Source: Kaistella sp. (GTDB lineage: Bacteria; Bacteroidota; Bacteroidia; Flavobacteriales; Weeksellaceae). Taken from it: a DNA stretch of 64,000 nt. Within the stretch, counting starts at the first letter, position 1; every line of letters begins with the position of its first letter. The notes under the pieces were generated by a model. That model ran no database searches. It had not been told where the DNA came from and saw only the letters and a list, made by a program, of their open reading frames with translations. Positions 25,825 to 64,000 of this stretch are shown here, in pieces. The position numbers and the translations under genes were made by a program. The stretch is from the NCBI GenBank assembly GCA_047637995.1, contig JBLJBP010000055.1, forward strand, positions 8,235-72,234. Reading direction: 5' to 3'.

Positions 25825-26685
25825 TTAATCTATAAGTTTTCTGAGATAATCTCCGTATCCGCTTTTGCCATATTTTGTAGCGGAAACCAAGAGCTGTTCC
25901 CTATCGATGAAACCTTTGCTGTATGCAATTTCTTCAATGCATGAAATTTTAAAACCTTGTCTTTTTTCCAGCACTTTCACAAACTCAGAAGCATCGTGCA
26001 GAGAGTCAAAAGTTCCGGTGTCTAGCCAAGCGGTTCCTCGGCTCATGACGCCCACTTCTAACTGACCTTTTTCCAGATAAATTTTGTTAATATCTGTGAT
26101 TTCTAATTCCCCTCTTGGCGATGGTTTCAGATTTTTGGCATATTCTACCACAGAATTATCGTAGAAATAGAGTCCTGGCACAGCAAAATTAGATTTTGGT
26201 TCAGAAGGTTTTTCTTCAATGGAGATTGCTTTTTTATCAGCATCAAATTCTACCACGCCGTATCTTTCAGGATCAGTAACTTGATAGGCGAAAACACAGC
26301 CACCTTTAACATTGGTTTTACTTTCCAGAAGTTGCTGTAAACCTGAGCCATAAAAAATATTATCGCCCAAAACCAGCGCCACAGCATCATCACCGATGAA
26401 ATCTTCTCCTAAGATGAAAGCTTGTGCTAAACCATCTGGACTTGGCTGCACTTTATATTCAAATCTGCAACCAATTTGTGAGCCATCACCTAGTAGTTTT
26501 TTAAACGCATCTACATCATGAGGAGTAGTGATAATAAGGATTTCTCTGATCCCTGCAAGCAGTAAAGTAGAAAGAGGATAGTAAATCATGGGTTTGTCAT
26601 AAACTGGCATGAGTTGTTTGCTTACTGCGATGGTCAGAGGATAAAGTCTGGTTCCGGAACCTCCGGCGAGGATTATTCCTTTCAT
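25825..26685 (-). CDS. rfbA: Glucose-1-phosphate thymidylyltransferase
   Basis: [35 protein letters not shown]. Length 286 aa. Confidence 0.95.
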
Positions 26686-26719
26686 TGTTTTGAGGTTAAT
26701 TGTTCTTTAGTCATCCTTG

Positions 26720-26727
26720 CAAAAGTA
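26720..26727 (-). promoter_or_regulatory. -7 promoter box candidate (TACTTTTG) for rfbA
   Basis: Matches TAnnTTTG 34 nt upstream of the ATG at 26685, inside the ORF6N-rfbA spacer. Confidence 0.3.
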
Positions 26728-26761
26728 GTGTTTTCATTTTTTGTTTTATCTTAAAAGCCCT

Positions 26762-27640
26762 CTATATTATTGCAATTTCTTTATCATTTCCTCTGCATTC
26801 AGCGAAATTTTTGAAAAATGCAAACCATTTTTTTCCCAAGTCTTTCAAAGAAGCGCCGATGAGATAGATTTCTTGTCTATCGATAATCAAAAAACGGTCG
26901 TGAGTTTTTGCAAATTCCTTCACTTCTATTTTATCATATTGGGCATTGAATTTCTGAATGTCTAAATAAAATTGCTTGGAAATCTTTTGCGTATATATTT
27001 CAGCAGTTACATTTTTGCTACGTTTTAAAAGCAAAGTCAATACAGTTTCATCTACAAAATTATCTATTAAAATAATAGATGATTTTGCTGATTTTATTAA
27101 ATCTGTTACAAAAATCCAAGCATCGAAAATTTGCCCATCATAGAAAATCCCTTGTTGTGGAGAAGGGTTTAATTCTAACGCTTTAAAAATTTTTTCAAAT
27201 TTTTGGTCAGTATCCAATTGTTTCGACTCTACTTTCTCTAAGCGAGAAAAAAGAACTTGATTGTTTTGCAAAAGTTTGCGCATTGACACAAAAGCATTGA
27301 TGATCTGGATGCTGACTTTTACAGCGGGGCTACTTCGTGAAACAGCGGAAAGCATCGCAACACCTTGCTCTGTAAAAACGTAGGGATTGCTTGAAGAATA
27401 TTTTAGCGTTTCAAAGCGTTCGCAATTTGCGACCAGTTCATTTTTTTCGTCATCATTAAGCTGAAATCGAAAAGCTTCGGGAAATCGTTCAATATTCCTT
27501 TTCACTTGCTCATTCAGTCTTTTTACTTCCACTTCATATAATTCTGCCAAGTCTCTATCAATCATCACTTGAAACCCTTGAATTGTAAAAATTCTGTTCT
27601 CAATTTGCGTTTGTGATAGATTGTTTTCCTTGTTCATCAT
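26762..27640 (-). CDS. ORF6N (KilA-N-like) DNA-binding domain fused to a Nuc/PLD-like C-terminal domain
   Basis: N-terminus IFTIQGFQVMIDRDLAELYEVEVKRLNEQVKRNIERFPEAFRFQL (ORF6N pattern). C-terminus SAKSSIILIDNFVD...THDRFLIIDRQEIYLIGASLKDLG resembles the Nuc-type HxK(x)4D(x)6GSxN signature with K replaced by R. Confidence 0.7.
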   Translation of the reverse strand: MMNKENNLSQTQIENRIFTIQGFQVMIDRDLAELYEVEVKRLNEQVKRNIERFPEAFRFQLNDDEKNELVANCERFETLKYSSSNPYVFTEQGVAMLSAVSRSSPAVKVSIQIINAFVSMRKLLQNNQVLFSRLEKVESKQLDTDQKFEKIFKALELNPSPQQGIFYDGQIFDAWIFVTDLIKSAKSSIILIDNFVDETVLTLLLKRSKNVTAEIYTQKISKQFYLDIQKFNAQYDKIEVKEFAKTHDRFLIIDRQEIYLIGASLKDLGKKWFAFFKNFAECRGNDKEIAII

Positions 27641-27644
27641 TACA

Positions 27645-27652
27645 CAAAAATA
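27645..27652 (-). promoter_or_regulatory. -7 promoter box candidate (TATTTTTG) for the ORF6N gene
   Basis: Matches TAnnTTTG. The final G is 4 nt from the ATG at 27640, the same leaderless geometry as dusB. Confidence 0.3.
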
Positions 27653-27764: not shown

Positions 27765-28844
27765 TTATTCATACTGCTTGCTATAGTATTTCTGGTAATC
27801 TCCTGAAGTTACATGGTCTAGCCATTCTTTGTTTTCTAGGAACCAATCTATTGTTTCAGAAAGTCCTTCTTCGAAGGTTACGCTGGGTTTCCAGCCCAGA
27901 TCTTCTGCGAGTTTTGTAGCATCGATGGCGTAGCGTTTGTCATGCCCTGGTCTGTCTTTCACAAAGGTGATGAGTTTTTCAGAAAAGCCCTGAGGTTTTC
28001 CAGTTTTCTCATCCACTTGTTTGATGAGCTCTTTCACCAAATTGATATTCTGCCACTCATTCCAACCACCGATGTTATAGGTTTTCCCGGTTTTTGCTTC
28101 ATGGAAAATCTGGAAGATTGCTTTGGCATGATCTATTACATACAGCCAATCTCTGGTGTACTTTCCATCACCATAAATAGGCAAAGGTTTTTCATTCAGG
28201 ATATTATGAATACATAATGGAATTAGTTTTTCCGGAAAGTGATTAGGTCCATAATTATTAGAGCAATTAGAAATAATAAAGGGCATTCCGTAGGTATTTC
28301 CATAGGCTCTCACCAAATGATCAGATGCTGCTTTCGATGCAGAATAAGGGGATTTCGGATCGTAAGAAGTTTCTTCAGTAAAGAATCCAGTTTCGCCCAA
28401 AGCGCCATAAACCTCATCAGTAGAAACATGGTAGAAGAGGTTGGTTCTGGTTTCATCTGGGAAATTTCCATGTTGATGATCGGGGTTTAGAGTCCAGAAC
28501 TCTTTAGCTAAATTCAGCAAATTGGCAGTTCCGTTTACATTGGTATTGATGAATGCATTGGGATCTGTAATGCTTCTATCCACATGAGATTCTGCGGCGA
28601 GATGCACCACTGCATCGGGTTTATATTTTTCAAAAACCTTTTGAAGTTCTTCGGGTTTTGTGATGTCTGCTTTCTCGAAAACGTAGTTAGGTTCGTTTTC
28701 AATATCTTTTAAATTTTCAAGATTTCCGGCGTAAGTTAAAGCATCGAGGTTGATAATTTTAGTTTGCGGAAGATTTTTCACAAATTCGCGTACAACGTGA
28801 GATCCTATGAATCCGGCACCGCCGGTTATAATGATAGCGTTCAT
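27765..28844 (-). CDS. rfbB: dTDP-glucose 4,6-dehydratase
   Basis: ITGGAGFIGSH, STDEVYG, YSASKAASDHL. Length 359 aa. Confidence 0.95.
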   Translation of the reverse strand: MNAIIITGGAGFIGSHVVREFVKNLPQTKIINLDALTYAGNLENLKDIENEPNYVFEKADITKPEELQKVFEKYKPDAVVHLAAESHVDRSITDPNAFINTNVNGTANLLNLAKEFWTLNPDHQHGNFPDETRTNLFYHVSTDEVYGALGETGFFTEETSYDPKSPYSASKAASDHLVRAYGNTYGMPFIISNCSNNYGPNHFPEKLIPLCIHNILNEKPLPIYGDGKYTRDWLYVIDHAKAIFQIFHEAKTGKTYNIGGWNEWQNINLVKELIKQVDEKTGKPQGFSEKLITFVKDRPGHDKRYAIDATKLAEDLGWKPSVTFEEGLSETIDWFLENKEWLDHVTSGDYQKYYSKQYE

Positions 28845-28847
28845 TTT

Positions 28848-28904: not shown

Positions 28905-29450
28905 TTAGAAATTATTTTCTTTAAAAGAAGGTAGCTGCTGATCTTTTTCGGATAATTGCACAACATCTTCGGGTAATTTCCAGTCGATATTCAAATCTTT
29001 ATCGTTATAAATCACGCTTCCTTCGGCATTTTTGTTATAAAAATTATCGCATTTGTAAGAAAAAATTGCCGTTTCACTTAAAACAGAGAAACCATGTCCG
29101 AAACCTCTAGGAACATACAATTGCAGTTTATTTTCTGGTGTTAATTCAACACCAAACCATTGACCGAAAGTTGGTGAATCTTTTCTTAAATCCACGGCAA
29201 CATCCCAGACTTTACCTTCCAAGCATGAAACGAGTTTTGCCTGTACATGTTCACCTTTTTGCAGATGAACACCACGAAGAACGCCATAGGAAGATTTTGA
29301 GATATTGTCTTGCACGAAATGGCCATTCATTCCTGTTAATTCTTCAAATTTCTGCTCGTTAAATTTTTCATAAAAATAGCCACGTTCGTCTTCGAAAATG
29401 GTGGGTTCTATGATGTAGCAATCTTTGAGTGGGGTTTTACGGATTTTCAT
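28905..29450 (-). CDS. rfbC: dTDP-4-dehydrorhamnose 3,5-epimerase
   Basis: Cupin fold with FEDERGYFYE, RGVHLQ, VWDVAVDLR and PRGFGHGF. Length 181 aa. Confidence 0.95.
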   Translation of the reverse strand: MKIRKTPLKDCYIIEPTIFEDERGYFYEKFNEQKFEELTGMNGHFVQDNISKSSYGVLRGVHLQKGEHVQAKLVSCLEGKVWDVAVDLRKDSPTFGQWFGVELTPENKLQLYVPRGFGHGFSVLSETAIFSYKCDNFYNKNAEGSVIYNDKDLNIDWKLPEDVVQLSEKDQQLPSFKENNF

Positions 29451-29460: not shown

Positions 29461-30456
29461 TTAAGAAACGATGATTTGCTTTTTAATTTTGTACTTCACA
29501 ATTATATAGCAGACCACGGTAGGTAGCAAAACTACTAAAAATATCATTGAATCTGAAAGAGATGTATTGATGATAAAAAGATTAATTAAAAATTGCAAAC
29601 AAGCGTAAAGGGAGCTAACATACAATTGGGGAATTTTCAATTCATTTGCCAACAGTTGATAAAGATGGCGCCGGTGCGCTTTGAATATGTTTTCTTTTAG
29701 TTTCAGCCGCTCAATAATTGTTAGAATTGTTTCAGTGCCGTAGATTGCTAAGAAGAGTATCCATTTAATTTGATTGGTTTTCAGTATTAGCAGCGCAATA
29801 AGTGCGATGATCCAAAATGCCATACCCATACTCCCCACATCTCCCAGAAAACATTTTGCTTTTGTTCTAAAGTTGAAAAACAGAAAAACTATTGTAGCAA
29901 TGATGGGGAAAATAATAAAATCTATTTGAGAAAAATCTATGATATACTGGTTTACAAACCAGAGAGAACCGAGAACAACAAGGCTATACAACCCTGACAT
30001 TCCATTAATACCATCCATAAAATTGTAAGCGTTGAGAATACCGATAATTAGAATATAAAAAACTGGTAAAACCCACCAATCTAGCAGTTGAAAAGCATTA
30101 ACAAAACAAAGCAATAAAGTAACTGCTAGGAAATGAAACACCAATCTCACCTTGCTAGACAAGTCTAAGATGTCATCTAAAAAACTAATAATGCAAATGG
30201 TGAGAAGACCAGCACCAAAAATCAGAAAATTTGGTTGGTTCAGGTAGTTTAAGGACAATTGATATTGTTTAAAACAAAATACATAAAAAATAAAAAACAT
30301 AAAAGCCACAGGAAAAACGATCCCTCCTCCTCTAATTGTGATTTCACTGTGTGCACTTCTATGGTTGGGTTTATCTATAATATTATATTTGGCGGCAATT
30401 TTAAAATATACCAGCATTATCATAAATAAAGTACCAGTCAGAATGATATACTCCAT
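29461..30456 (-). CDS. Initiating polyprenyl-phosphate HexNAc-1-phosphate transferase (MraY/WecA/WbpL family, GT4)
   Basis: About 10 TM helices. Motifs DKPNHRSAH, FLDDILDL, NAYNFMDGINGM. Confidence 0.85.
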   Translation of the reverse strand: MEYIILTGTLFMIMLVYFKIAAKYNIIDKPNHRSAHSEITIRGGGIVFPVAFMFFIFYVFCFKQYQLSLNYLNQPNFLIFGAGLLTICIISFLDDILDLSSKVRLVFHFLAVTLLLCFVNAFQLLDWWVLPVFYILIIGILNAYNFMDGINGMSGLYSLVVLGSLWFVNQYIIDFSQIDFIIFPIIATIVFLFFNFRTKAKCFLGDVGSMGMAFWIIALIALLILKTNQIKWILFLAIYGTETILTIIERLKLKENIFKAHRRHLYQLLANELKIPQLYVSSLYACLQFLINLFIINTSLSDSMIFLVVLLPTVVCYIIVKYKIKKQIIVS

Positions 30457-31349
30457 TATTTTTTAAAACTTTTGAGGGTTTTTATTAGACCTTCTTCTAC
30501 AGAACAAGGAAATTTTTCTATTCCTAATTCTTTTTTAATTTTATTGTTGGAAACTACATAGTTTTCGGTAAGTTTTTTCAGTCTTTCGCTATTCAGTGGA
30601 AGTTTCAACACATCTCCCACTTTGGCAACCGCAGTGATTATAGAAGAAGGAACCCTGATTAGTATTTCTTTTTTATTGATGGATCTTGCAATATACTGAA
30701 TTAATTCATTTGTAGATACCGGATTGTCATCAGCAACATTATAAACACCTGAGTTTATAGCATCCTCATTTATCATCTTGGTTATTAAGTAATTCAGATT
30801 GTCAACACTTAAAAAAGAGCGTTTATTTTTAAATTCTGCAAGGGGCCAAGGCAGTCCTGTCTGCACTATATTAAATAGCAAGTTTAGGTTTCCTTTGTTA
30901 CCAGGGCCGTGAATCATACAAGGTCTTATGATAAATAATCTTTTTCCAGATGGCAATCTTTTTGAAAGCAAATAACGTTCAGCTTCAAGTTTAGATTTGC
31001 CATACGGCGTTAATGGGTGGGGATCCTGATCTTCAGTCAAAATTCCGGAAACCGTGTCTGCAACAGCTTTTACTGATGAGAAATAAAAAAAATCTTTACA
31101 ATTGGAACTGATAAACTGATCAAAAACCTGAGCTGTAAGTTCACTATTAATCCGGTAATATTCTAAATCTTCGGTAGTATTTTCAGTATCATGGGCTTTG
31201 CCAGCAAGGTGTATGAATACGTCTGCATCGATGGGAAAATTCCATTGATTTCTTAGCGAAAGACCATCAACTGTGAAGCCCTCATCTATAAAATGAGCAC
31301 TTAAATTAGTACCAACAAAACCGGAACTCCCGGAAATTACAATTTTCAT
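30456..31349 (-). CDS. NAD-dependent sugar epimerase/dehydratase (WbjF-like)
   Basis: SGSSGFVGTNL Rossmann motif and YGKSKLEAE catalytic YxxxK. Positioned between the WbuB-like GT and the WbpL-like transferase. Confidence 0.8.
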   Translation of the reverse strand: MKIVISGSSGFVGTNLSAHFIDEGFTVDGLSLRNQWNFPIDADVFIHLAGKAHDTENTTEDLEYYRINSELTAQVFDQFISSNCKDFFYFSSVKAVADTVSGILTEDQDPHPLTPYGKSKLEAERYLLSKRLPSGKRLFIIRPCMIHGPGNKGNLNLLFNIVQTGLPWPLAEFKNKRSFLSVDNLNYLITKMINEDAINSGVYNVADDNPVSTNELIQYIARSINKKEILIRVPSSIITAVAKVGDVLKLPLNSERLKKLTENYVVSNNKIKKELGIEKFPCSVEEGLIKTLKSFKK

Positions 31350-32558
31350 TTACCTTTTTTTTAGAATGGTTTCCAAATGATCAATACATGCACAGAGCTT
31401 AAAATTCTGCGCAAAATAACGCTTTCCATTTTGTCCAAGAGTTGTTCTGGTCAACTCATCTTGTTGCGCAAAAGTAAGAATTTTGTCAGCCAAAGCTTTA
31501 AAATCTCCTGCGGGCACAGAAAATCCAGCATTTGCATCTTTAATAGTATCTGCCCCTTCGCCATTAATCATTGCGATGATAGGTTTACCTGCGCTCATAT
31601 AAGCCTGAACTTTTGCGGGAACAGTCAAGTTAAAAATAGGATCATCTTTTAATGTCACTAGCATTGCATCTGCTTTGCTGAAGAATGTTGACATAGCTTC
31701 CACTGGAAACCTACCATAAGTCTTTACGGTGGTATGTAATTGATTTGCAGCAATAAACTCTTGCACAAAACTCATTTTCCTGCCATCTCCTATAATAATC
31801 CATTTTATTTCTGGATAATTTTTTAAATATAAGGCAGCATTCATAATACTTTCCATATCCTGGGCTTCGCCCACATTTCCAGCAAACATCACCTTAAATC
31901 CTGATGGTAAATCTGGAATAGTAAAATCTGTTTCTCCATCTGCGATTGAGTCTTCTGCCCAATTTGGGAAATAGACAATTTTATCATCAAAATCACCTTT
32001 TTCTACGATAGATTTTCTAAAACCTTTTGATGTGATAAGGATTTTTGCCGCATTAGAATAAAAGCCAACTACAACTTTTTTAAAATAATTCAGTACCTTT
32101 TTGTTTTTTACACCGCCTGCAATCTCTAAACTCTCTGGCCAGAGATCCATCACCCAAAAATAAACTGGAGTTTTTTGCAATTTACTTAAGAGCAGCGCTG
32201 GATAATACTGGGTGATTGGTGAAGGTTCATGCACAATGATGGCATCATATTTATGAAAAAAACTTCTGAAAAATGCTTTAATTGATGCAAAAAATGCAAA
32301 GCTGTAATAATTTAGAAAAAGCCGTATACCGCCGCCTTTACCTCGTAAAAACAACAATGCGCGAATCACTTTAACACCATTTATTTCTTGTTCTCTATTT
32401 TTAAAAAAGCCATATCCTTTGTAAAGTTTTCCTTCAGGATAATTGGGAAGACCTGTAAGGACTGTGACATCATGTCCTCTTTTTTGCAACTCAAAGGCAA
32501 GATCATTGCTTTTAAAATTTTCCGGAAAAAAATATTGGGTTACAATTAAAATTTTCAT
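31350..32558 (-). CDS. Glycosyltransferase family 4, WbuB/WbjE-like (L-FucNAc transferase type)
   Basis: MKILIVTQYFFPENFKSNDLAFELQKRGHDVTVLTGLPNYPEG is the characteristic WbuB-type N-terminus. Lies directly downstream of fnlC. Confidence 0.8.
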   Translation of the reverse strand: MKILIVTQYFFPENFKSNDLAFELQKRGHDVTVLTGLPNYPEGKLYKGYGFFKNREQEINGVKVIRALLFLRGKGGGIRLFLNYYSFAFFASIKAFFRSFFHKYDAIIVHEPSPITQYYPALLLSKLQKTPVYFWVMDLWPESLEIAGGVKNKKVLNYFKKVVVGFYSNAAKILITSKGFRKSIVEKGDFDDKIVYFPNWAEDSIADGETDFTIPDLPSGFKVMFAGNVGEAQDMESIMNAALYLKNYPEIKWIIIGDGRKMSFVQEFIAANQLHTTVKTYGRFPVEAMSTFFSKADAMLVTLKDDPIFNLTVPAKVQAYMSAGKPIIAMINGEGADTIKDANAGFSVPAGDFKALADKILTFAQQDELTRTTLGQNGKRYFAQNFKLCACIDHLETILKKR

Positions 32559-33691
32559 GCTTTACTCCAAACTACCCGGTTCACATAATCTGTATAACTC
32601 AGAATAATGCGCACTACTTTTTCTGAAACATTGGGCATTGAATAGTCTGCTGGCCTGCGATAGTTGCGCTGCTCGCCTATGTTTTGCTGCTCCAGTTGGG
32701 CTAATCCTTGAAGAATACGGGCTACATTCATACCTACCATCATCACGCTGGCTTCTTCCATAGCTTCTGGCCTTTCGTGAGCATCTCTGATATTCAATGC
32801 GCGGAAATTGAGAATGGAAGATTCTTCTGAAATGGTTCCAGAATCTGATAAAACTGCGTAAGAATGCATTTGCAAAGCATTATAATCATGGAAACCCAAG
32901 GGCTTGAGGAATTGAATTTCTGGTCTAACCTTTACATTTTTTGCATCAATCATATTTCTTGTTCTGGGATGAGTAGAAACGATGATTGGCATTTTATATT
33001 GATCTGCAATTGCATTTAACGAATCTATTAGTCCGCTAAAATTTTTCTCAGAGTTGATGTTTTCTTCTCGATGCGAACTCACCACAAAGTATTTTCCTTT
33101 TTCTAAATTCAAACGAGAAAGCACATCAGATTTTTCTATTTGGGGCAGATAATGGTTCAGAACTTCAAACATTGGCGAACCTGTTTTGATGATTCTATCT
33201 GCCGGGAGCCCCTCTCTCAAAAGGTATTCTCTGGCAATATCACTATAGGTAAGGTTGATATCTGCGGTGTGATCTACAATTTTTCTATTGGTTTCCTCTG
33301 GCACTCTTTGGTCAAAACATCTGTTGCCAGCTTCCATGTGGAAAATTGGGATTTGTCTTTTCTTTGCAGGTATGGCACAAAGACAAGAATTGGTATCGCC
33401 CAGCACCAAAAAAGCGTCTGGTTTTAATTCTTCTAAAAGCGGATCTATTTTTATAAGAATATTCCCTACGGTTTCCGTGGCGGTTTTTCCGGCGGCTTCT
33501 AAGAAATAATCAGGTTTTCTAAGTCCTAAATCTTCGAAGAAAATTTGGTTGAGTTCATAATCATAGTTTTGTCCGGTATGTACTATCACGTGGTCTATTG
33601 CCTCTGACTGGTCTAAAGCAGTTAGCACTTTAGCCAATCTAATAATTTCCGGACGGGTTCCTACAACCGTCATCACCTTTAGTTTCTTCAT
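32555..33691 (-). CDS. fnlC: UDP-N-acetylglucosamine 2-epimerase, non-hydrolysing (FnlC/CapG type)
   Basis: MTVVGTRPEIIRLA, VHTGQNYD, LGDTNS, HMEAGNR. Confidence 0.9.
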   Translation of the reverse strand: MKKLKVMTVVGTRPEIIRLAKVLTALDQSEAIDHVIVHTGQNYDYELNQIFFEDLGLRKPDYFLEAAGKTATETVGNILIKIDPLLEELKPDAFLVLGDTNSCLCAIPAKKRQIPIFHMEAGNRCFDQRVPEETNRKIVDHTADINLTYSDIAREYLLREGLPADRIIKTGSPMFEVLNHYLPQIEKSDVLSRLNLEKGKYFVVSSHREENINSEKNFSGLIDSLNAIADQYKMPIIVSTHPRTRNMIDAKNVKVRPEIQFLKPLGFHDYNALQMHSYAVLSDSGTISEESSILNFRALNIRDAHERPEAMEEASVMMVGMNVARILQGLAQLEQQNIGEQRNYRRPADYSMPNVSEKVVRIILSYTDYVNRVVWSKA

Positions 33692-52233: not shown

Positions 52234-52237
52234 TTTA

Positions 52238-55448: not shown

Positions 55449-56074
55449 TTAATAAGTTTTTGTGCGGGATTTCCCACCCAGATTTCATTTTCAGGAATGT
55501 CTTTCAGTACTACACTACCAGCTCCTATGATGACGTTCCTACCTATAGATGTTCCTTGTTTGATGAAAGAGTTACCACCTACAAAAGAATTTTCGCCTAC
55601 CGTTACATTTCCTGCTAAAACAGCACCTGGTCCTATATGAACTCCATTTTCAATACTGCATTCATGCTCGATAATACTTGCGGTATTGATGATGCAATTA
55701 TTTGCAATCTGCACAAAAGCATTTATCGCAACATTAGCACCTATGAAATTTCCTACACCAAATTTCGTATAATTACTTAAAACTGAAGCAGGATGAATAA
55801 TATTTAACAATTTCTTATTTTTCTGCAAAATCAGTTGAGCGACTTTCTGCCGGATTGCGTTGTCTCCTATTCCCAGAATATAGGCATCTGCAATATTCCA
55901 GTTAAAAGCATCACTACCTTCGTCTCCTAGGTACTGAAGGTCAAAGGGATTATTTGGAGCTTGTTCTTTTTCGCAATAAAAGTTCGTGTGCAGTCCCATA
56001 AGTTTTGCTGCATCTAAAACAACAAAAGAATGGCCAGAGTAGCCAATAATTGCTATGTTAGATTTATCTGGCAC
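55445..56074 (-). CDS. legH: Amino-sugar N-acetyltransferase (PglD/NeuD/LegH type)
   Basis: N-terminal IAIIGYSGHSFVVLDAA plus C-terminal hexapeptide repeats. Length 209 aa. Confidence 0.8.
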   Translation of the reverse strand: MPDKSNIAIIGYSGHSFVVLDAAKLMGLHTNFYCEKEQAPNNPFDLQYLGDEGSDAFNWNIADAYILGIGDNAIRQKVAQLILQKNKKLLNIIHPASVLSNYTKFGVGNFIGANVAINAFVQIANNCIINTASIIEHECSIENGVHIGPGAVLAGNVTVGENSFVGGNSFIKQGTSIGRNVIIGAGSVVLKDIPENEIWVGNPAQKLIK

Positions 56075-57206: not shown

Positions 57207-57208
57207 AC

Positions 57209-58396
57209 TTACATTTTTGAGTCTAAATATTTGCCGGTTTCTTTATGTCCAAAGTTAGGAATCATTTTGTGAAATAGCGTTACTATTTCTTCTTTGCTCC
57301 AGTTTCTGCTTGCTTTCAAGGTATCTATAGTTTCTTCAAAAAGCTGAAGTTTATCCTGCTCTATTTTAAGGCTATTTTTTATCACTCCAAAATTTTCAAA
57401 CCTATCCATATCTAAGATTTCATTGTCAGTATAGAACTCTTCAAAATCTTTTTCGCCGGTAGTATCGCTTTCTGTGAAAAGACATGGCCATTTTCCCTGT
57501 TTGGATAACGCATCTACTTTTTGCCGAGCTTCTTCTTCATTTTGGCAGAGATAAGGCTCATATCCTATTTCTTGGAGGAATTTTACTGCGATTTCTGCAA
57601 ATGTGATTAGGTGCAGGCTTTCACTGAGTTTAGGAAAAAAAATGTCTCTATTCTCGCCAAAGATACAAGACATTAAACACAACTCTCCTGATTCTTTAGG
57701 AATCACAAAATACCGTTTGATATCGTTGGGTGCTACTATTGGCTGTCTTTTCTCAATTCTTTTATTAAAACCATGTAGTAGTGACCCGTCTGAGAACGCT
57801 ACATTAGCAAATCGTGCGGTAGAAATACTAATTTCACTGCTTTTTCTCATTAGAAACATCTCCATTATTCTTTTAGAAGCTCCCATCATATTGACAGGGT
57901 TGGCTGCTTTATCCGTGGAGACACAAAAATATTTCTTAACTCCTTTATCAATGGATTGTTGCAATGTTTTATCTGTATTAAAAATGTTCACATTAATCAT
58001 TCGCATTAATGTATAGGGATCTTTTTCACTACGGACATGCTTCAATGCCGAGAGATTGAGAACATAGTCATATTGCCCGTCTGCTTCCCAGAAAACATCA
58101 TATTCTAAAGAACCTATATCTAATGCAAAGGTTCTAAAATCTCCATCTATATAGCCGTATGAACTACGAATATCGCGCACCAGCTCTACCATATTGTTTT
58201 CACTAATATCTACAACATGCAGTTTTTTCGGATTTCGTTTAAATAGTTCTTTGGTAGTTGCAGCACCTATGGAACCGGCCCCACCTATTACTAAGAATGC
58301 ACTATTTGCAACAATTTCTTGTAAATTATTTTCATGCTTGAAAATATCTGCTTCAAACAATTCTTCTGTTCTCCCTATCAAACCAAGAATATTCAT
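57209..58396 (-). CDS. legB: Soluble CapD-family NDP-HexNAc 4,6-dehydratase (LegB/LgaA-like)
   Basis: VIGGAGSIGAATT, MGASKRIME. 395 aa with no TM region. Confidence 0.75.
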   Translation of the reverse strand: MNILGLIGRTEELFEADIFKHENNLQEIVANSAFLVIGGAGSIGAATTKELFKRNPKKLHVVDISENNMVELVRDIRSSYGYIDGDFRTFALDIGSLEYDVFWEADGQYDYVLNLSALKHVRSEKDPYTLMRMINVNIFNTDKTLQQSIDKGVKKYFCVSTDKAANPVNMMGASKRIMEMFLMRKSSEISISTARFANVAFSDGSLLHGFNKRIEKRQPIVAPNDIKRYFVIPKESGELCLMSCIFGENRDIFFPKLSESLHLITFAEIAVKFLQEIGYEPYLCQNEEEARQKVDALSKQGKWPCLFTESDTTGEKDFEEFYTDNEILDMDRFENFGVIKNSLKIEQDKLQLFEETIDTLKASRNWSKEEIVTLFHKMIPNFGHKETGKYLDSKM

Positions 58397-58405: not shown

Positions 58406-60760
58406 TTAAAATCTATCTTTTAGTTTTTGAAAAAACGTTTTTTCAGTTGCTCCGTAGCCATAGCCATACTTATTGCCATAGCCCAAGTCTTCTTTGGTTA
58501 CATCATTTAAGACAAAACCAACATTCTTTATTTTATTGCCCTCAATCTGGTGATTAGCAAAATCTATCAAGGTAGTTTCAGAAACTTTTGATCTCACTAC
58601 ATACACCGTTACATCAGCTAAATCTGAGAATAAGAATGAATCTGTAACTAACATTAGCGGTGCTGTATCTAATATCACATAATCATACTCCTTTTGAAGT
58701 TGCAAAATGAGATTTTCATACCTTCCGTTTGCAAGAAGTTCTACTGGATTTGGTGGGATACTTCCTGAATAGATGATATCACAATTTGCACTGAAAGTTG
58801 ACTGATGAATAATATCTTTAACGTCAGTAGTTTCATCATATAAATACTCAGATAGCCCATTGGCAGTCTTTTTTGTAGGGTCATATCTTTGTAACTGCGG
58901 ATTTCTGATATCTGACCCTATCACTATTACTTTCTTATTGGTATTTGCCAAGGTAAGCGCCAGATTGATAGAAATAAAGGTCTTTCCTTCGCCTTTTACA
59001 GTAGAGGTAACAAATACTATTTTCCCACCAGATATTTTAGGAAGCATAAAATTCATATTGGTAGTTAGTATTCTGAATGCTTCTGATACCGGTGACAAAT
59101 CATTTTGCTGCACTACATCATTATCACTTCTTTCTAATTTAGGTATTTCTGCAATGATGGCAGTCTGCGACCTGTTTTCAATATCTTTTTTAGTTCTAAT
59201 TTTGTTATTTAACAATTGTTTTAGGTAGATAATGCCAAAAGGAATGCTCAGACCTATAACCGATAAGACGAATAAAACGATCATTTTCTTGGGTGAAACT
59301 GGCTTTTCTGAGCCGTATGCTGCATCAAGAATCCTGGCTTTAGGTGCAGTGATAGCCAAAGCTATAGCGGTTTCTTCTCTTTTCTGAAGGAGTAGCAAAT
59401 ACAAGCTTTCTTTTATTTGTTGCTGTCTATCAATGCCTCTAAACATTTTTTCTAATGCAGGGATTTTAGAAATCTTACCTGCTACTTTACTTTGCTCTTG
59501 CAGCAACTGGTTTCTGCTTAAGAGTAGGGCATCTTTATTTTTTGCAAGCCCATCTGAAATAGAAGATCTTAAAATATTAATTCGTTTGGTAAGGTCCATT
59601 ACCAACGGGTTTTGTGGCGTTGCATTGTCTAACAACTGATTTCGCTCTAAAACCAATTCATTATAAGCTGTGATTGCAGCACCAGCAGCAGTGTTTCCTC
59701 CTGCAATATTAGAAGGTAGGGTCTGGTTGCTACCTTGCCTAGATAAATACGAGATCAGATCATTAGTGAGCTGCAGTTCTGTTTCTATATCTATTAATCT
59801 AGTATTTGAACTGTTCACAGCATTGAGACTTAGTGAGGCCTCAGCTGTTATATCTGTAATTTTATTTTGAACTTTAAACTGCTCTTTCTGGCCTTCAACT
59901 TGTCCTAATTCATCAGCAATCAGTGCAATTCTCTCATCAATAAAATCTTTGGTTTTCATTGACTCTGAGTTTTTATCCTTAATCGCATCCATATTATAAA
60001 CATCAACAAGTTTATTAAGGATTGCTTTTGCTTTATCTACATTTGGATAGTTCATAGAGAGCCCTATCACGGTTGCTTCTTTTTCCACAAGCTTCACATC
60101 AAGCATCTTCTGAATGTCATTAACCGCTTTTTCTTTTGGGAGATATACAAAATTGAGTTCCTCTAATTCCTCTTCTTTATTACTAACAAACGCCGGGTTT
60201 TTTAGGATAATGATGTTGGCATAAGGCAAACTAATCGTTTTATTAAAACTAGTGTTTATGGGAGCTTTAAAATTATCTGATGTCAATACAAGTGCTTCAC
60301 CTTTTATCGTAAAAAACACTGGAAGAACAGGATTCTTAAAATCCTTCTCATTTACTACTTTGATGACTACTGGTGAAGTTTGTGCAAAGAGTTCTTTCTC
60401 CTTCATTCCATCTTTCGCGTAAACTGATGTTTGCAAACCAAGTTCTGTCACAACGTCTGTCATCAATTTTTTGGTCTTTAAAACTTCTATCTCATTGTCT
60501 ATACTGTTAGTACCCATTGCATTGAGACCAGAGAGGTCTGAAAGCATCCCGAAATCACTTGAAGATCTTTTGGCATCTTTTATTAAGATGGTAGATTTTA
60601 TATTGTAAACTGAAACAGTTCTTTTAAAATAAAAAAAAGCTAATGCTACAGCTAAAATAAAAGAAAGCACAAACCAAAACCATTTTCGTAAATAGGGTTG
60701 TATTATTTCAAGAAGTGTTTGTTCAGGTTTATTATCCACAATAGAAGAGTTCTGACTCAT
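58406..60760 (-). CDS. wzc: Polysaccharide co-polymerase / tyrosine autokinase (Wzc)
   Basis: Two TM segments flank a large coiled periplasmic domain. Walker A STVKGEGKTF, ILDTAP, C-terminal Tyr cluster GYGNKYGYGYG. Confidence 0.9.
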   Translation of the reverse strand: MSQNSSIVDNKPEQTLLEIIQPYLRKWFWFVLSFILAVALAFFYFKRTVSVYNIKSTILIKDAKRSSSDFGMLSDLSGLNAMGTNSIDNEIEVLKTKKLMTDVVTELGLQTSVYAKDGMKEKELFAQTSPVVIKVVNEKDFKNPVLPVFFTIKGEALVLTSDNFKAPINTSFNKTISLPYANIIILKNPAFVSNKEEELEELNFVYLPKEKAVNDIQKMLDVKLVEKEATVIGLSMNYPNVDKAKAILNKLVDVYNMDAIKDKNSESMKTKDFIDERIALIADELGQVEGQKEQFKVQNKITDITAEASLSLNAVNSSNTRLIDIETELQLTNDLISYLSRQGSNQTLPSNIAGGNTAAGAAITAYNELVLERNQLLDNATPQNPLVMDLTKRINILRSSISDGLAKNKDALLLSRNQLLQEQSKVAGKISKIPALEKMFRGIDRQQQIKESLYLLLLQKREETAIALAITAPKARILDAAYGSEKPVSPKKMIVLFVLSVIGLSIPFGIIYLKQLLNNKIRTKKDIENRSQTAIIAEIPKLERSDNDVVQQNDLSPVSEAFRILTTNMNFMLPKISGGKIVFVTSTVKGEGKTFISINLALTLANTNKKVIVIGSDIRNPQLQRYDPTKKTANGLSEYLYDETTDVKDIIHQSTFSANCDIIYSGSIPPNPVELLANGRYENLILQLQKEYDYVILDTAPLMLVTDSFLFSDLADVTVYVVRSKVSETTLIDFANHQIEGNKIKNVGFVLNDVTKEDLGYGNKYGYGYGATEKTFFQKLKDRF

Positions 60761-60768
60761 TTAGAATA

Positions 60769-61575
60769 TTATTTTTTGAAAACTAGGGCTAAAATTGTTA
60801 CTACAATACCTGCCACGGAAATATAAATTGGCATATTGGGATCTAAACGCGAGGTTTTATCTCTGGTCTGGTTACCACCTACATAGATCACATCACCTTG
60901 CTTCACTTGAAAATAAGGCGAATTGAAAAATTGGGCATCTTTTAAATCTATTCTATGTTTGGTAATTGTACCATTTTCATTTCTTACCAGCAAGATATCG
61001 TCTCTTTTGCCATACATGGTGAGATCTCCGGCCAAAGCTATAGCTCCTAATAATGTGGTTTGTCCATCTGCAACAGTATATTGCCCGGGTCTTGCTACCT
61101 CACCTAAAACTGTTACTTTATAATTAGTAATCTTTATATTTACGCTAGGATTCAAGATATATTTGCTCAGTTTGTTGCGCAGCTCATCCTTTAACGCTAC
61201 TAACGTTTTTCCATTGGTATCTAAAACACCTAAAACAGGAAAATCTATTTGTCCCTGAGAATCAACAATGTACATAGGCCCTTTTTCGCTAATTTGCCCT
61301 TCCAATGGTGTATTACCTCCTGGTGATGAAGACTGTGAAATTTCAGATGAAGAGTAATTCTGGTTGAAAGGTTTTACCACTGCCATGTCTTTTGCAGTGA
61401 TTAAAATCATCAGCTGATCTCCTTTCTGAATAGTAGAAGTGGTATTTTGTAATGCTGCTTGTGTGGCTATCTGTTCCACATTTTGCATATAATTGAGTTC
61501 GCTTGCTTTTTCTTTTATTTTGCAGGATGCTATTAGAAGTAAACCTGCCATCCAAAGGAATATCTTTCTCTTCAT
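60769..61575 (-). CDS. wza: Polysaccharide export outer-membrane protein (Wza family)
   Basis: Lipoprotein signal LLIASC, Poly_export and SLBB motifs (VTVLGEVARPGQYTV). Confidence 0.85.
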   Translation of the reverse strand: MKRKIFLWMAGLLLIASCKIKEKASELNYMQNVEQIATQAALQNTTSTIQKGDQLMILITAKDMAVVKPFNQNYSSSEISQSSSPGGNTPLEGQISEKGPMYIVDSQGQIDFPVLGVLDTNGKTLVALKDELRNKLSKYILNPSVNIKITNYKVTVLGEVARPGQYTVADGQTTLLGAIALAGDLTMYGKRDDILLVRNENGTITKHRIDLKDAQFFNSPYFQVKQGDVIYVGGNQTRDKTSRLDPNMPIYISVAGIVVTILALVFKK

Positions 61576-61602
61576 TTTAATCTTTTAAAAAATAGAATTT
61601 TG

Positions 61603-61610
61603 CAAATATA
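61603..61610 (-). promoter_or_regulatory. Promoter candidate for wza-wzc and downstream genes (-7 box TATATTTG; -33 TTG 19 nt upstream)
   Basis: TAnnTTTG match 27 nt upstream of the ATG at 61575, with a TTG at consensus spacing. Lies in the only long (212 nt) spacer of the locus. Confidence 0.45.
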
Positions 61611-61787
61611 CAATTCTTAATCGCTTTTGCAAGTTGTAGATTTTGTCTTGTTATGAAATATTATGACATAATCTCAGTTTATTGCGCAATATAAATAAAT
61701 AATCTTAAATCAATGAGAACATCCATTAATAATCCTGAAAAAAATTGTCTTATGAATTTTATTGCCTCTCCTGCCCAGATTTCTGAA

Positions 61788-63728
61788 CTATTTGTCTAAC
61801 GCTTCGTAGATGGAATTATTGCTCTTGAACTCAGGTACTATTTCTTTCAGCAATTGTACCACTTCTACTTTCTCCCCACGAAGTGCTGCCTTAATGATCT
61901 TATTGCTAAAATCATCTATCGCATCATAGGTCATATTCGGGTCTTTAGAGATCAGTATCTTTTCGTGGTGGGTAGGCAGCGTGGTAGCATCATCACTCAG
62001 CAGTTCTTCATACAGCTTTTCACCTGGCCGCAAACCGGTATAGACGATGTTGATATCTACATTGGGTTCTAAACCTGAAAGTTTAATCATGCGCTCTGCA
62101 AGATCCTGAATCTTCACGGGCTCGCCCATATCAAACACGAAAATCTCTCCGCCATTGCCCATCACGCCTGCTTCTAATACTAAATCACACGCTTCGGGAA
62201 TGGTCATAAAATACCGAACGATGTCTGGATGGGTGATGGTTACAGGACCACCATTTTCTATCTGTCTCTTAAAATGTGGTATCACAGATCCATTAGAACC
62301 CAACACATTTCCGAATCTGGTAGTGATGAATTTTGTACGATTGCTTTCTGAATTTTGCAATGCCTGCACAAAAAGTTCGGCAGCACGTTTGGAGGCGCCC
62401 ATCACATTGGTAGGTTTCACGGCCTTGTCTGTAGAGACCATTACAAACCTGTTCACATTATATTTAGAGGCTAATGAGGCCAAATTTTTGGTCCCTAAAA
62501 TATTTACCAAAATGGCTTCATGCGGATTTTCCTCTATCAATGGAACGTGCTTGTAGGCCGCAGCATGATAGACCATCGCAAACTGGTATTTCTGGAACAG
62601 CGGTTCTATTCTGTGCCTGTTTGAAATATCGCCCAAAATAAACTTAAAGGCAATGGCTGGAAACGAGTTGCGCAACTCCATTTCAATCTCATAAAGCGGG
62701 GTTTCTGCCTGATCTAAAATCACAATCAGTGCTGGCTCAAACTGGGCTACCTGGCGCACAATCTCGCTTCCTATAGAACCTGCACCTCCGGTAATCAGGA
62801 CGGTTTGGTTAAAATGTCTGCGTTTGATGTCTTCGTTTCCTATTCTAATGGGTTTCCTATTGAGCAAATCTTCAATCTGCAAGGTTTTTATAGAATTTTC
62901 CTGATCGCTGTTTCTAAGGATATGGAGTGAAGGTGCTTTGAAAATCTGCAAATCTTTCTCTAAGAAAAGATTCACCCACTGGTTCATTTCATCTTTGGCA
63001 ATGGTTTCCTGAATGAGCAAAACACCATCTATCAGCAAATCATCTTTGGTGCTGTGTTTTAGTTTTTCTTTGGTATAAATAGGTTTTCCTAGCAGATGGG
63101 CACGGCGTGAATCATGTCTTTGGGTGAGGAAACCCACCACATAATATGGCAGATTAGAATTGTCTAATATGGTTCTGGCTGTGGTCACTGAAGCTTCATC
63201 TATCCCTAAAACCAAGATTCTCTTCCGCATCGTGCTTCTTCTGAAATCTCTGGCGATGGCAAAAAATTCTTTCACGAAAAGCCTGAAGAGAAACAGCATC
63301 ATAAACGAGGAAGCAAAAAACAAGACCAGAAACGGCACAGACATATAAATCATCCTTTCACCGGTGCTGAAATAGTAGCTTGCACTGATGATGCCTACGA
63401 TGATGGTAGTACTAAAGGTGCAGAGAAAAAGTTTAAAAAGATCGATAAAAGTAGAATGCCTGATGATGCCGGCGTAGGTACGAAACGCGAACATCATTAA
63501 AACACTGATGCCTAAAATCATCAAGAAAACTTTGTTTCCGTGGGGGAAAACGAGGTTAGAACTGAAGCTCAGTTTTTCTATCAGATATTTTGAGAAATAT
63601 ACTGAACATGCTATAAAGAACACATCGATAATCAGAATTACCCAGCGTGGCAGATAGCGCACATCGCCTAGATTCATCAGATTGTCACCGCTGTAGATTT
63701 TCTTTCTTATACTCTTTCGCAAACTCAT
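61788..63728 (-). CDS. Membrane-anchored CapD/WbpM/PglF-family UDP-HexNAc 4,6-dehydratase
   Basis: Four N-terminal TM helices, ITGGAGSIGSEI, MGASKRAAE. Length 646 aa. Confidence 0.85.
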   Translation of the reverse strand: MSLRKSIRKKIYSGDNLMNLGDVRYLPRWVILIIDVFFIACSVYFSKYLIEKLSFSSNLVFPHGNKVFLMILGISVLMMFAFRTYAGIIRHSTFIDLFKLFLCTFSTTIIVGIISASYYFSTGERMIYMSVPFLVLFFASSFMMLFLFRLFVKEFFAIARDFRRSTMRKRILVLGIDEASVTTARTILDNSNLPYYVVGFLTQRHDSRRAHLLGKPIYTKEKLKHSTKDDLLIDGVLLIQETIAKDEMNQWVNLFLEKDLQIFKAPSLHILRNSDQENSIKTLQIEDLLNRKPIRIGNEDIKRRHFNQTVLITGGAGSIGSEIVRQVAQFEPALIVILDQAETPLYEIEMELRNSFPAIAFKFILGDISNRHRIEPLFQKYQFAMVYHAAAYKHVPLIEENPHEAILVNILGTKNLASLASKYNVNRFVMVSTDKAVKPTNVMGASKRAAELFVQALQNSESNRTKFITTRFGNVLGSNGSVIPHFKRQIENGGPVTITHPDIVRYFMTIPEACDLVLEAGVMGNGGEIFVFDMGEPVKIQDLAERMIKLSGLEPNVDINIVYTGLRPGEKLYEELLSDDATTLPTHHEKILISKDPNMTYDAIDDFSNKIIKAALRGEKVEVVQLLKEIVPEFKSNNSIYEALDK

Positions 63729-63789
63729 GCTTTATTTAATCTCTAAAAATACCGGCGGTCTGCACTCGGCACTATTGTTTTGTCTTACA

Positions 63790-63797
63790 CAAAAGTA
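63790..63797 (-). promoter_or_regulatory. Promoter candidate for the WbpM-like gene (-7 box TACTTTTG; -33 TTG 19 nt upstream)
   Basis: TAnnTTTG match with a TTG at consensus spacing, between the DegT stop and the ATG at 63728. Confidence 0.4.
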
Positions 63798-63815
63798 AAC
63801 ATTATTCTTTATGCA

Positions 63816-64000
63816 TCAATGTTTAGCTGCAAATAATATGGAATTGAGCGCATCGGCTATTCTAACCTTCTCTTCATCAGACAGATTAGATCCTGAAGGC
63901 AAACAAATACCGTTATTGAAAAGAGATTCGGCAACATTTGTCCCAAAATACGGATACTGCTTGAAAATGGGTTGCAAGTGCATGGGTTTCCAGATCGGCC
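63816..64000 (-). CDS. DegT/DnrJ/EryC1-family aminotransferase, C-terminal end (gene starts beyond the right window edge)
   Basis: The reverse-strand frame reads PIWKPMHLQPIFKQYPYFGTNVAESLFNNGICLPSGSNLSDEEKVRIADALNSILFAAKH then stop. This C-terminus is typical of sugar aminotransferases. Confidence 0.75.
   Translation of the reverse strand, partial: PIWKPMHLQPIFKQYPYFGTNVAESLFNNGICLPSGSNLSDEEKVRIADALNSILFAAKH

Follow-up and report, generated by a model that had tools for sequence, protein, structure and literature searches.

A probable Wzx/Wzy-dependent surface-polysaccharide locus with a legionaminic-acid-type sugar module in a Kaistella genome

Which glycan would be built by a run of 37 co-directional genes, most of them for sugar synthesis, transfer and export, and is that glycan a new one? 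The question is raised by a 64,000-nucleotide stretch of a Kaistella sp. genome (assembly GCA_047637995.1, contig JBLJBP010000055.1, positions 8,235 to 72,234 of the forward strand; hereafter the window), in which positions 25825 to 64000 had been read in an initial annotation as a polysaccharide locus with a probably novel product structure. Here, we find it likely that the region forms one Wzx/Wzy-dependent surface-polysaccharide locus, for a capsule or an O-antigen whose repeat unit would contain a legionaminic acid (Leg)-type sugar. The suggested novelty for Flavobacteriales is overstated, since each sugar type has already been described in Flavobacteriia, the chemotype is known and syntenic cassettes exist elsewhere: the locus is a real yet ordinary cluster of the Wzx/Wzy type.

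The first issue is the extent of the locus. From 25825 to 63728, the open reading frame (ORF) listing of the window gives 36 complete minus-strand ORFs in unbroken series, and the final 185 bases (63816-64000, minus strand) encode the C-terminus of a DegT/PglE-like aminotransferase (translation ending ...PIWKPMHLQPIF...GICLPSGSNL...). The whole 369-residue DegT gene is found on a second contig, L086, which comes from the same sequencing run and matches the window at 100% identity over 59266-64000; it completes the run of 37 genes, in agreement with the initial count. Intergenic gaps are mostly below 20 bp or are overlaps, with a maximum of 212 bp between wbpM and wza, and the plus-strand ORFs of at least 90 residues within the block (all of 91-137 residues) lie antisense inside longer minus-strand genes that have family matches. 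At the 3′ side, a perfect hairpin with a 15-bp stem and A7/T7 flanks (25786-25819) lies between rfbA and a convergent ORF on the plus strand. The hairpin resembles a bidirectional terminator and would set the 3′ end of the locus; the boundary initially placed at 25825 is thus real. The 5′ boundary placed at 64000 does not hold, as the locus runs about 2.2 kb further, with a PglD-like and a PglC-like gene seen on L086 (order on L086: a type IX secretion system (T9SS) cargo gene, an 83-residue ORF, PglC-like, PglD-like, DegT, WbpM). About 38 of the roughly 40.5 kb are therefore inside the window. A terminator scan found no excess in the block (14 versus 12.6 in shuffled sequence), and a sigma-70 promoter scan, which does not cover Bacteroidota promoters, gave 63 hits versus 67.6. 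The GC content of the window is about 0.36, and third-position GC (GC3) is 0.30 in the cassette genes versus 0.35 in the flanking genes (p = 4e-4).

Genes were classed by NCBIfam and Pfam profile searches, with scores compared to the curated cutoffs; some of the Pfam matches were precomputed. Most of the 37 genes proved glycan-related, as had been proposed for all of them, the exceptions being an ORF6N-domain protein (26762-27640) and a hisF2 fragment (36450-36875). All of the locus genes described below are on the minus strand.

The export and assembly genes called initially (wza, wzc, wzx, a wzy-like gene and a WbpL-like initiator) are all backed by profile matches, Wzy as a candidate. The Wza-like outer-membrane polysaccharide export protein (60769-61575; 268 residues) matches the EpsY, EpsE and Wza models, all below their cutoffs, and Pfam Poly_export and SLBB (precomputed). 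Next to it lies a 784-residue Wzc-like chain-length regulator and tyrosine autokinase (58406-60760; TIGR01007, 141 bits versus a cutoff of 108) with a tyrosine-rich C-terminal tail (YGNKYGYGYG). On these profile matches, a tyrosine autokinase of polysaccharide co-polymerase class 2a (PCP-2a) and an outer-membrane polysaccharide export (OPX) protein are both present. The 424-residue Wzx flippase (44638-45912) passes the Pfam Polysacc_synt_3 cutoff (26.8 versus 23 bits) and has 8 hydrophobic segments. The 416-residue Wzy candidate (41544-42794) has at least nine such segments and scores 34.9 bits with TIGR04370 (cutoff 40); its relatives carry the NCBI name O-antigen polymerase. The locus thus has one wzx, one wzy candidate and one Wzc/Wza pair. 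The initiating enzyme encoded in the window would be a polyprenyl-phosphate N-acetylhexosamine (HexNAc)-1-phosphate transferase of the WbpL/WecA family (29461-30456; Pfam Glycos_transf_4, 75.8 bits versus 27; 9 hydrophobic segments). Together with this polytopic initiator, we counted four more glycosyltransferases (GTs) in the window, and a repeat unit of about five sugars is therefore predicted.

In the 5′ part of the locus, the 646-residue WbpM/PglF-like membrane UDP-GlcNAc 4,6-dehydratase (61788-63728) has 4 hydrophobic segments in its N-terminal part and matches the PseB and FnlA models over its C-terminal half. It is preceded by the DegT/PglE-like aminotransferase, whose full-length product scores 368 bits with the NCBIfam LegC-family model (cutoff 420), and, on L086, by the PglD-like gene (TIGR03570, 215 bits versus 161) and the PglC-like gene (Bac_transf). 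PglF-, PglE-, PglD- and PglC-like genes are thus present in a row, as in a PglCDEF module, with a bacillosamine-type sugar as the presumed product. The initial assignments of WbpM-like and DegT proteins, of two amidotransferases with HisH/HisF and of an O-acetyltransferase likewise find support in NCBIfam or Pfam.

The nonulosonate genes follow wzc. Nine genes (49848-58396) support a putative pathway to a legionaminic-acid-type nonulosonate. The first encodes a soluble 395-residue NDP-GlcNAc 4,6-dehydratase in the LgaA/LegB role (57209-58396; Pfam Polysacc_synt_2, E 1e-42), 78% identical to the first gene product of the seven-gene Leg-type set of Escherichia coli NT1F31. It is followed by a LegC-family aminotransferase (56064-57206; TIGR04181, 542 bits versus 420), a NeuD/PglD-family N-acetyltransferase in the LegH role (55445-56074; TIGR03570, 196 versus 161), a NeuB-type nonulosonate synthase in the LegI role (54438-55448; TIGR03569, 501 versus 400, with just 290 bits for the PseI model) and a NeuC-type hydrolysing 2-epimerase in the LegG role (53287-54441; TIGR03568, 473 versus 236). 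The sixth protein (52238-53290) combines a KpsF-type CBS N-terminus with a sugar-1-phosphate nucleotidyltransferase domain (residues 120-345), in the PtmE/LgaF role. The seventh is a cytidylyltransferase in the ElaB/LegF role (51505-52233; PseF model, 88 bits versus 206; best Protein Data Bank (PDB) match 6IFD, E 2e-20), clearly a family member and putatively a CMP-nonulosonate synthetase. These seven genes match the NT1F31 set. The last two encode a 305-residue Gfo/Idh/MocA oxidoreductase (ElaA-like; 50582-51499), with inositol-dehydrogenase-family matches and found in only a subset of Leg loci, and a 249-residue short-chain dehydrogenase (SDR; ElaC/PtmA-like; 49848-50597), with 234 bits for PRK09186 (cutoff 255), 154 for the NCBIfam PtmA model (cutoff 350) and 6UH2 as best structure. 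No PseG-like or PseH-like gene was seen in the block by the NCBIfam and Pfam searches.

Is legionaminic acid itself the product of this module? The Gfo and SDR pair is absent from the NT1F31 set. In Acinetobacter baumannii KL49, 8-epi-Leg5Ac7Ac is made by lgaABCDEF together with ElaA (Gfo/Idh/MocA), ElaB (cytidylyltransferase) and ElaC (SDR) (PMC13656337, PMC9676051), and the window has the same three families placed after its six core Leg genes. Moreover, 6UH2 and 6IFD, the structures best matched by our SDR and cytidylyltransferase, are the models behind the structure solution of ElaC and ElaB (PMC13656337). The three genes also vary together: among 64 loci, the cytidylyltransferase is 46-58% identical to that of the window in the six that have the Gfo and SDR genes, and 28-42% in the other 58. 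This co-variation and the Ela-like composition point to a functional cassette, and they suggest that the nonulosonate may be the 8-epimer instead of legionaminic acid itself. The full legionaminic-type pathway initially proposed stands to that extent, LegC-, NeuB- and NeuC-type enzymes being present, with its end product qualified. Used as a DNA query against E. coli genomes, the trio gave no match.

Directly downstream of the module are the genes of a first amidotransferase set: an intact HisF/WbuZ-like subunit (48993-49838; TIGR03572, 269.5 bits versus 299.7; TIGR00735, 269 bits), a HisH/WbuY-like glutamine amidotransferase subunit (48339-48986; TIGR01855, 202 versus 105) and a 410-residue N-acetyl-sugar amidotransferase, WbuX410 (47106-48338; TIGR03573, 348 versus 203). 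A second amidotransferase of 366 residues, WbuX366 (45916-47016; TIGR03573, 355 versus 203), follows, both having the SGGKDS PP-loop. Judged from these families, a system of the WbuXYZ type (PP-loop amidotransferase with HisH-like and HisF-like subunits) is present. Which sugar would it modify? A genome scan with WbuX410 returned 80 loci (L003-L082; 69-90% identity), 46 of them with full 10-kb flanks, the best match being Flavobacterium sp. MC2016-06. HisH and HisF stood beside the WbuX410 orthologue in 46/46 of these full-flank loci, a NeuB-type gene was present in 42, and NeuC-type and cytidylyltransferase genes were each present in 44. The neighbourhoods identify hisF-hisH-wbuX410 as an add-on of legionaminic-type modules. 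The distribution of the trio suggests wide spread by horizontal transfer. The phyla with WbuX410 include Bacteroidota, Planctomycetota, Elusimicrobia, Verrucomicrobiota and Patescibacteria, an unusually strong conservation for a gene of a polysaccharide locus. WbuX366 orthologues come straight after WbuX410 in L035, L059 and L062, and straight after the nonulosonate module in L089, a 146-kb metagenome scaffold and the nearest syntenic relative found; no fnl genes were found in the region examined around those of L059 and L062. WbuX366 was also considered as an L-FucNAm (2-acetamidino-2,6-dideoxy-L-galactose) enzyme and rejected as the preferred reading, as it is 23% identical to WbuX of E. coli O145 and travels with the nonulosonate module even where no fnl genes were found nearby. 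Both amidotransferases would thus act on the nonulosonate, or share in that pathway.

The fnl genes themselves, initially annotated as fnlABC, are supported by the searches. FnlA, a UDP-GlcNAc 4,6-dehydratase/5-epimerase (35411-36445; TIGR04130, 542 bits with a cutoff of 730), is 69.8% identical to its O145 counterpart, and FnlC, a non-hydrolysing 2-epimerase (32555-33691; TIGR00236, 248 versus 210), is 69.5% identical. The FnlB/WbjC-like 4-reductase between them (33793-34911) matches NF047837 end to end (255 bits, cutoff 500) and is 33% identical to O145 WbjC. The order fnlA-fnlB-fnlC-GT4 is common to the window and O145. A UDP-L-FucNAc (N-acetyl-L-fucosamine) pathway is present by these family assignments, and the related L-QuiNAc (N-acetyl-L-quinovosamine) or L-PneNAc (N-acetyl-L-pneumosamine) are possible variants because FnlA and FnlB score under their equivalog cutoffs.

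The fucosamine would be N-acetylated and not amidinated. Just before fnlA is a 141-residue truncated AglZ/HisF2 (wbuZ) remnant (36450-36875), which resembles HisF2 only over its C-terminal 110 or so residues (profile positions 139-247 of 248). In O145 the order is wbuX-hisH-AglZ/HisF2-fnlA-wbjC-wecB-GT4, and the stub occupies the wbuZ position. With the C-terminus of O145 WbuZ the stub shares 44.5% identity; the intact HisF of the window reaches just 33% with O145 WbuZ. On L089, intact WbuX (395 residues), HisH (204) and HisF2 (252) precede a FnlA 90% identical to that of the window, and the C-terminus of this HisF2 is 75% identical to the remnant. Apart from the stub, no remnant of wbuX or hisH was found upstream of fnlA in the window. 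The stub, set beside the intact sets of L089 and O145, indicates that this lineage has lost its fnl-linked amidotransferase set by deletion. L-FucNAc is therefore a better prediction than the L-FucNAm offered as an alternative in the initial annotation, which now seems unlikely.

Two amidotransferases served by one HisH/HisF pair allow a further reading. They could amidinate a single 8-epi-legionaminic-type sugar twice, or act on two different sugars, with hisF-hisH-wbuX410 as a cross-phylum mobile add-on that has displaced the older fnl-linked wbuX-hisH-hisF2 in this lineage. We consider this combination doubtful. If the double amidination, or that of two sugars, were true, it would imply a nonulosonate derivative not yet described.

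Several other genes would complete the repeat unit. One is a 445-residue GT38-like glycosyltransferase, a candidate nonulosonate transferase (42809-44146). It passes the cutoff of Pfam A-2_8-polyST (PF07388; 36.7 versus 23.3 bits) through residues 297-407, covering only profile positions 188-306 of 316. It also has weak BFO_1060 and TIGR04396 matches, and no PDB sequence match was obtained. It adjoins, in the window as in L035 and L003, a 169-residue hexapeptide-repeat O-acetyltransferase (44148-44657; maltose/galactoside O-acetyltransferase, WbbJ and WcaF models). The pairing resembles that of a polysialyltransferase with a NeuO-type O-acetyltransferase. Two GT4 glycosyltransferases are encoded at 40363-41547 (394 residues; precomputed Pfam Glycos_transf_1) and 36875-38044 (389 residues), both with GT4-family matches. 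A third, WcaI/WbuB/WbjE-like, is the candidate L-FucNAc transferase (31350-32558; NF007640, 132 bits, below cutoff); it has the same position after fnlC as O145 WbuB, yet is only 22% identical to it. Beside the WbpL-like gene lies a 297-residue SDR (30456-31349; Pfam Epimerase, 74 bits; weak PDB matches only), and because of this adjacency it may act as the 4-reductase of the WbpM product, toward UDP-D-QuiNAc or UDP-D-FucNAc.

The rhamnose genes end the locus. RfbC/RmlC (28905-29450; TIGR01221, 235 bits versus 156), RfbB/RmlB (27765-28844; TIGR01181, 449 versus 365) and RfbA/RmlA, the last gene (25825-26685; TIGR01207, 486 versus 361), all pass their cutoffs. The dTDP-6-deoxy-L-hexose pathway initially assigned to rfbABC is incomplete there, as RmlD (rfbD), needed for the RmlABCD set of dTDP-L-rhamnose, was found nowhere in the 64-kb window. 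In Flavobacterium psychrophilum, rmlC and rmlD sit elsewhere on the chromosome, outside the O-antigen locus (PMC6519341). A 312-residue SDR (38025-38963) was considered as a stand-in for RmlD and rejected as GalE-like: it would be a nucleotide-sugar 4-epimerase (GalE model, 135 bits, below cutoff; best PDB matches UDP-glucose 4-epimerases).

Two proteins of the cassette are less readily classed. A 140-residue cupin-like protein (34979-35401) has a weak FdtA/WxcM_C match (21.5 bits versus 23) and no useful PDB or NCBIfam match; homologues occupy the same position in L007 (44.7% identical) and L089 (60%). A 434-residue protein (39042-40346) with an N-terminal hydrophobic anchor has no family match in NCBIfam or Pfam, and its AlphaFold model (mean predicted confidence, pLDDT, 91.7) is a right-handed beta-helix. 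The best Foldseek matches of this model, all with low TM-scores, are the Vibrio cholerae VPS lyase RbmB, phage capsule depolymerases and glycoside hydrolases, and distant relatives of the protein carry PF12708. From the model, it is a candidate lyase or hydrolase that may trim or modify the polymer. Homologues of this protein and of the Wzy candidate appear to share contigs (NCBI records of Chryseobacterium aahli, Soonwooa purpurea and Sphingobacterium luzhongxinii), and homologues of the 434-residue protein alone also occur in Kaistella and Elizabethkingia.

How is such a locus composed? A contig from another sample (L085; logan DRR618978_2399) bears on this. Its pglC-to-wbpM block (3044-8602) is 99-100% identical in nucleotide sequence to the window and L086, with a 100% identical WbpM-like protein, and its locus then diverges: identity to the window passes from 0.99-1.00 to 0.55-0.68 within about 61.75-61.5 kb, Wza and Wzc are only 52% and 55% identical in amino acids, and unrelated wzx, EpsG and GT2 genes follow. 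The L085 cassette also holds a beta-helix (PF12708-like) protein. The drop places the start of an exchangeable serotype cassette at the 212-bp wbpM-wza spacer (61576-61787). The alignment shows a conserved 5′ block (PglC-like, PglD-like, DegT and, as its final gene, WbpM) followed by an apparently exchangeable cassette from wza to rfbA. The downstream end of the cassette was sought through DRR618978, with no exact matches to the flanking proteins.

The gene-by-gene comparison with relatives that had been proposed for the locus was carried out, and its result weakens the argument for novelty. Colinearity with the window extends from legH to fnlB in L089 (ENA ERZ28616528), at 43-90% amino-acid identity (one divergent GT4, 28.5%), and from legC to fnlB in L035 (JBLMYS010000111.1), at 31-77%. 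In both it spans about 20 kb, including the Ela-like trio, WbuX366, wzx, the GT38-like gene, wzy, GT4 and fnl genes. L089 shares the beta-helix protein and has no hisF-hisH-wbuX410, keeping instead the intact wbuX-hisH-hisF2 before fnlA; L035 has both wbuX genes and lacks the beta-helix, epimerase and 389-residue GT4 genes. Flavobacterium sp. MC2016-06 (L003) has the Leg core, hisF-hisH-wbuX410, the O-acetyltransferase and the GT38-like gene. L035 is labelled as an Acidobacteriota metagenome-assembled genome, with a GC of 0.34-0.40, like the window, and the 20-kb synteny. This suggests a mis-binned Bacteroidota contig or a recent transfer, and makes the label doubtful.

The following sequence of events can be proposed. 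WbpM would produce UDP-4-keto-6-deoxy-GlcNAc, which the 297-residue SDR would convert to UDP-D-QuiNAc or UDP-D-FucNAc, or DegT and PglD to a bacillosamine-type sugar. This first sugar would be transferred to undecaprenyl phosphate by the WbpL-like enzyme or by its PglC-like alternative, encoded outside the window. L-FucNAc made by FnlABC would be added by the WbuB/WbjE-like GT4, and the two other GT4s would add L-rhamnose (from RfbABC and an RmlD encoded elsewhere) and one sugar possibly supplied by the GalE-like epimerase. The GT38-like enzyme would then add the CMP-activated legionaminic-type nonulosonate, probably epimerised at C8 by the Gfo and SDR pair, given an acetamidino group by WbuX410 and/or WbuX366 with ammonia from HisH/HisF, and perhaps O-acetylated by the neighbouring acetyltransferase. 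Wzx would flip the resulting unit, roughly a pentasaccharide, Wzy would join the units into a polymer and Wzc and Wza would export it, the secreted beta-helix protein perhaps trimming the polymer.

A number of points weigh against this proposal. The polymer is a prediction from sequence. The likeness of the trio to ElaABC is one of family and arrangement. NCBIfam equivalog cutoffs are missed by FnlA, FnlB, the cytidylyltransferase, the SDR and WbuZ, and the Wzy candidate falls just short of the TIGR04370 cutoff (34.9 versus 40). With O145 WbuX, each WbuX of the window shares only 23-25% identity, and the putative substrates were assigned from gene neighbourhood; the GT-to-sugar assignments are guesses from gene position. 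Profile searches of the window found no rmlD, Wzb-type phosphatase or WaaL ligase. Finally, two initiating transferases, WbpL-like and PglC-like, are tied to the locus.

This last point leads to the best-surviving alternative, in which two glycans are made: a PglC-initiated bacillosamine-based glycan (for instance, a lipopolysaccharide (LPS) O-antigen primer or a general protein O-glycan) from pglC-pglD-degT-wbpM, and a separate WbpL-initiated capsule from the wza-to-rfbA cassette. The two initiators belong to different superfamilies, the pglC-to-wbpM block is 99-100% identical across two samples with unrelated downstream cassettes, and a PglC homologue serves the O-antigen of F. psychrophilum (PMC6519341). 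However, the 40 kb contain one wzx and one wzy candidate, with no second flippase, ligase or oligosaccharyltransferase seen, and WbpM would also supply the 4-keto sugar to the SDR/WbpL branch, coupling the blocks metabolically. We think two glycans improbable, though they deserve to be kept in mind. Far less likely is that the nonulosonate module decorates proteins, as terminal pseudaminic acid (Pse) or Leg does on the O-glycans of Tannerella forsythia, or the LPS core, rather than a polymer. General O-glycosylation systems exist in Bacteroidota, some with a terminal nonulosonate (PMC4030854, PMC11632369), and the GT38-like protein has a weak match to the glycosyltransferase family BFO_1060. 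Nevertheless, both the module and the candidate transferase lie between wzc and wzx/wzy, within the exchangeable cassette, and in L089 and L035 they keep their colinearity with wzx, wzy and the GT4 genes. There is equally little chance of a locus in decay that has ceased to make a complete polymer, as might be read from the truncated hisF2, the rmlD missing from the window and the foreign defence-type gene between rfbA and rfbB, because the other 35 genes are all full-length against their family profiles, the packing is tight with translational overlaps, the intact HisH/HisF pair would compensate the loss of hisF2 and rmlD is found elsewhere in a described system (PMC6519341). A single Wzx/Wzy-dependent locus thus remains the likely reading.

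The defence-type gene encodes a 292-residue ORF6N-domain protein (26762-27640; Pfam ORF6N, 105 bits), which matches PADLOC PDLC04869 over its full length (E 4.9e-118), a family of the candidate defence system PDC-S05, and whose N-terminus is like PHROG anti-repressor families. It is a candidate phage-defence gene and a passenger, foreign to glycan synthesis; its place is within a phage-receptor locus. Directly 3′ of the locus, three successive plus-strand ORFs of 149, 192 and 243 residues (23959-25775) are without a match in NCBIfam, PADLOC or precomputed Pfam, and only the 192-residue ORF has a PHROGs match, a single weak one. Elsewhere in the window, a Flavo-1 RNA (6072-6157, plus strand; Rfam RF01705, 42.3 bits, gathering score 42) is flanked by dusB and a gene for an ABC ATPase, and genes for lipid A form a cluster at about 12-17 kb (lpxD, lpxC/fabZ, lpxA region). 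Also encoded are a PorX-like response regulator with a PglZ domain (18341-19882, plus strand) and two proteins that bear T9SS type A sorting domains (3367-4920, plus strand; 8764-9723, minus strand). The Flavo-1 RNA, the T9SS and PorX-like genes, the GC content and the best WbuX410 match all fit Flavobacteriia; taken alone, they would suggest Flavobacterium.

What is then already described? Flavobacterium columnare contains L-FucNAm, Flexibacter (now Tenacibaculum) maritimus a nonulosonic acid and Cellulophaga Pse (PMC3210612), and units joining a nonulosonate, L-FucNAc(Am) and a HexNAc have been described for both E. coli O145 and A. baumannii K49 (PMC7685785, PMC13656337). A literature search found no published legionaminic-acid polysaccharide structure from a Flavobacterium, and the exact structure of the present glycan may be unpublished, as is expected for most newly read polysaccharide loci.

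The understanding of how such loci work is unchanged by these findings. In flavobacteria, several of which are fish pathogens, the loci for surface polysaccharides determine serotype, susceptibility to phages and the specificity of vaccines. What is documented here is a legionaminic-type module in a flavobacterial capsule or O-antigen cassette, a swap point at the wbpM-wza spacer and the replacement of one amidotransferase set by another. The GT38-like nonulosonate transferase, the two amidotransferases and the Ela-like epimerase pair are candidate enzymes for glyco-engineering.

Finally, the locus can be set beside the systems it most resembles. The Leg pathways of Campylobacter jejuni and Legionella pneumophila follow the same logic as the window, with dehydratase, aminotransferase, N-acetyltransferase, hydrolysing 2-epimerase, synthase and cytidylyltransferase. 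They also have a PtmE-like nucleotidyltransferase and an amidinated nonulosonate, the L. pneumophila O-antigen being made of Leg5Am7Ac. Papers on these pathways are cited in PMC8208679. The dehydratase of the window is, however, of the Polysacc_synt_2 type and not of the TIGR04180 LegB type, and its sugar is predicted for a Wzy-dependent heteropolymer instead of flagellin or a homopolymer.

In E. coli O145, whose O-antigen consists of Neu5Ac, L-FucNAm and GlcNAc (PMC7685785), the nonulosonate genes are likewise followed by wzx, wzy and a putative sialyltransferase (locus L083), but Neu5Ac is made without the dehydratase and aminotransferase steps and there is no Wza/Wzc. The F. psychrophilum O-antigen, of L-Rha (rhamnose), L-FucNAc and D-Qui2NAc4NR (PMC6519341), is close in taxonomy, and its locus shares several features with the window: the rml genes are split between the locus and other chromosomal sites, and three fnl genes, pglE/pglF, a PglC-like initiator, WbuA/WbuB-like GTs and wzx/wzy are present. 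Its serotypes differ through cassette and wzy exchange. Unlike the window, it has no nonulosonate module or amidotransferases; genes for the acyl chain of the R group are present, and its unit is a trisaccharide where about five sugars are predicted here.

A close counterpart is A. baumannii K49, with a unit of L-FucNAc, D-GlcNAc and 8eLeg5Ac7Ac encoded by lgaABCDEF with elaABC, fnlABC, gtr, qnr, itrB and gdr (PMC13656337, PMC9676051). Both loci have Wza/Wzc export, a Wzx/Wzy pathway, a WbpM/Gdr dehydratase and a six-gene Leg core followed by the cytidylyltransferase, Gfo/Idh/MocA and SDR trio, and fnlABC followed by a GT4, an SDR reductase gene and a WbpL/ItrB-type initiator. They differ in the order of the trio, which is cytidylyltransferase, Gfo, SDR in the window, and in what the window has in addition: two WbuX with HisH/HisF, rfbABC, two GT4s, the GalE-like epimerase, the beta-helix protein and the GT38-like transferase.

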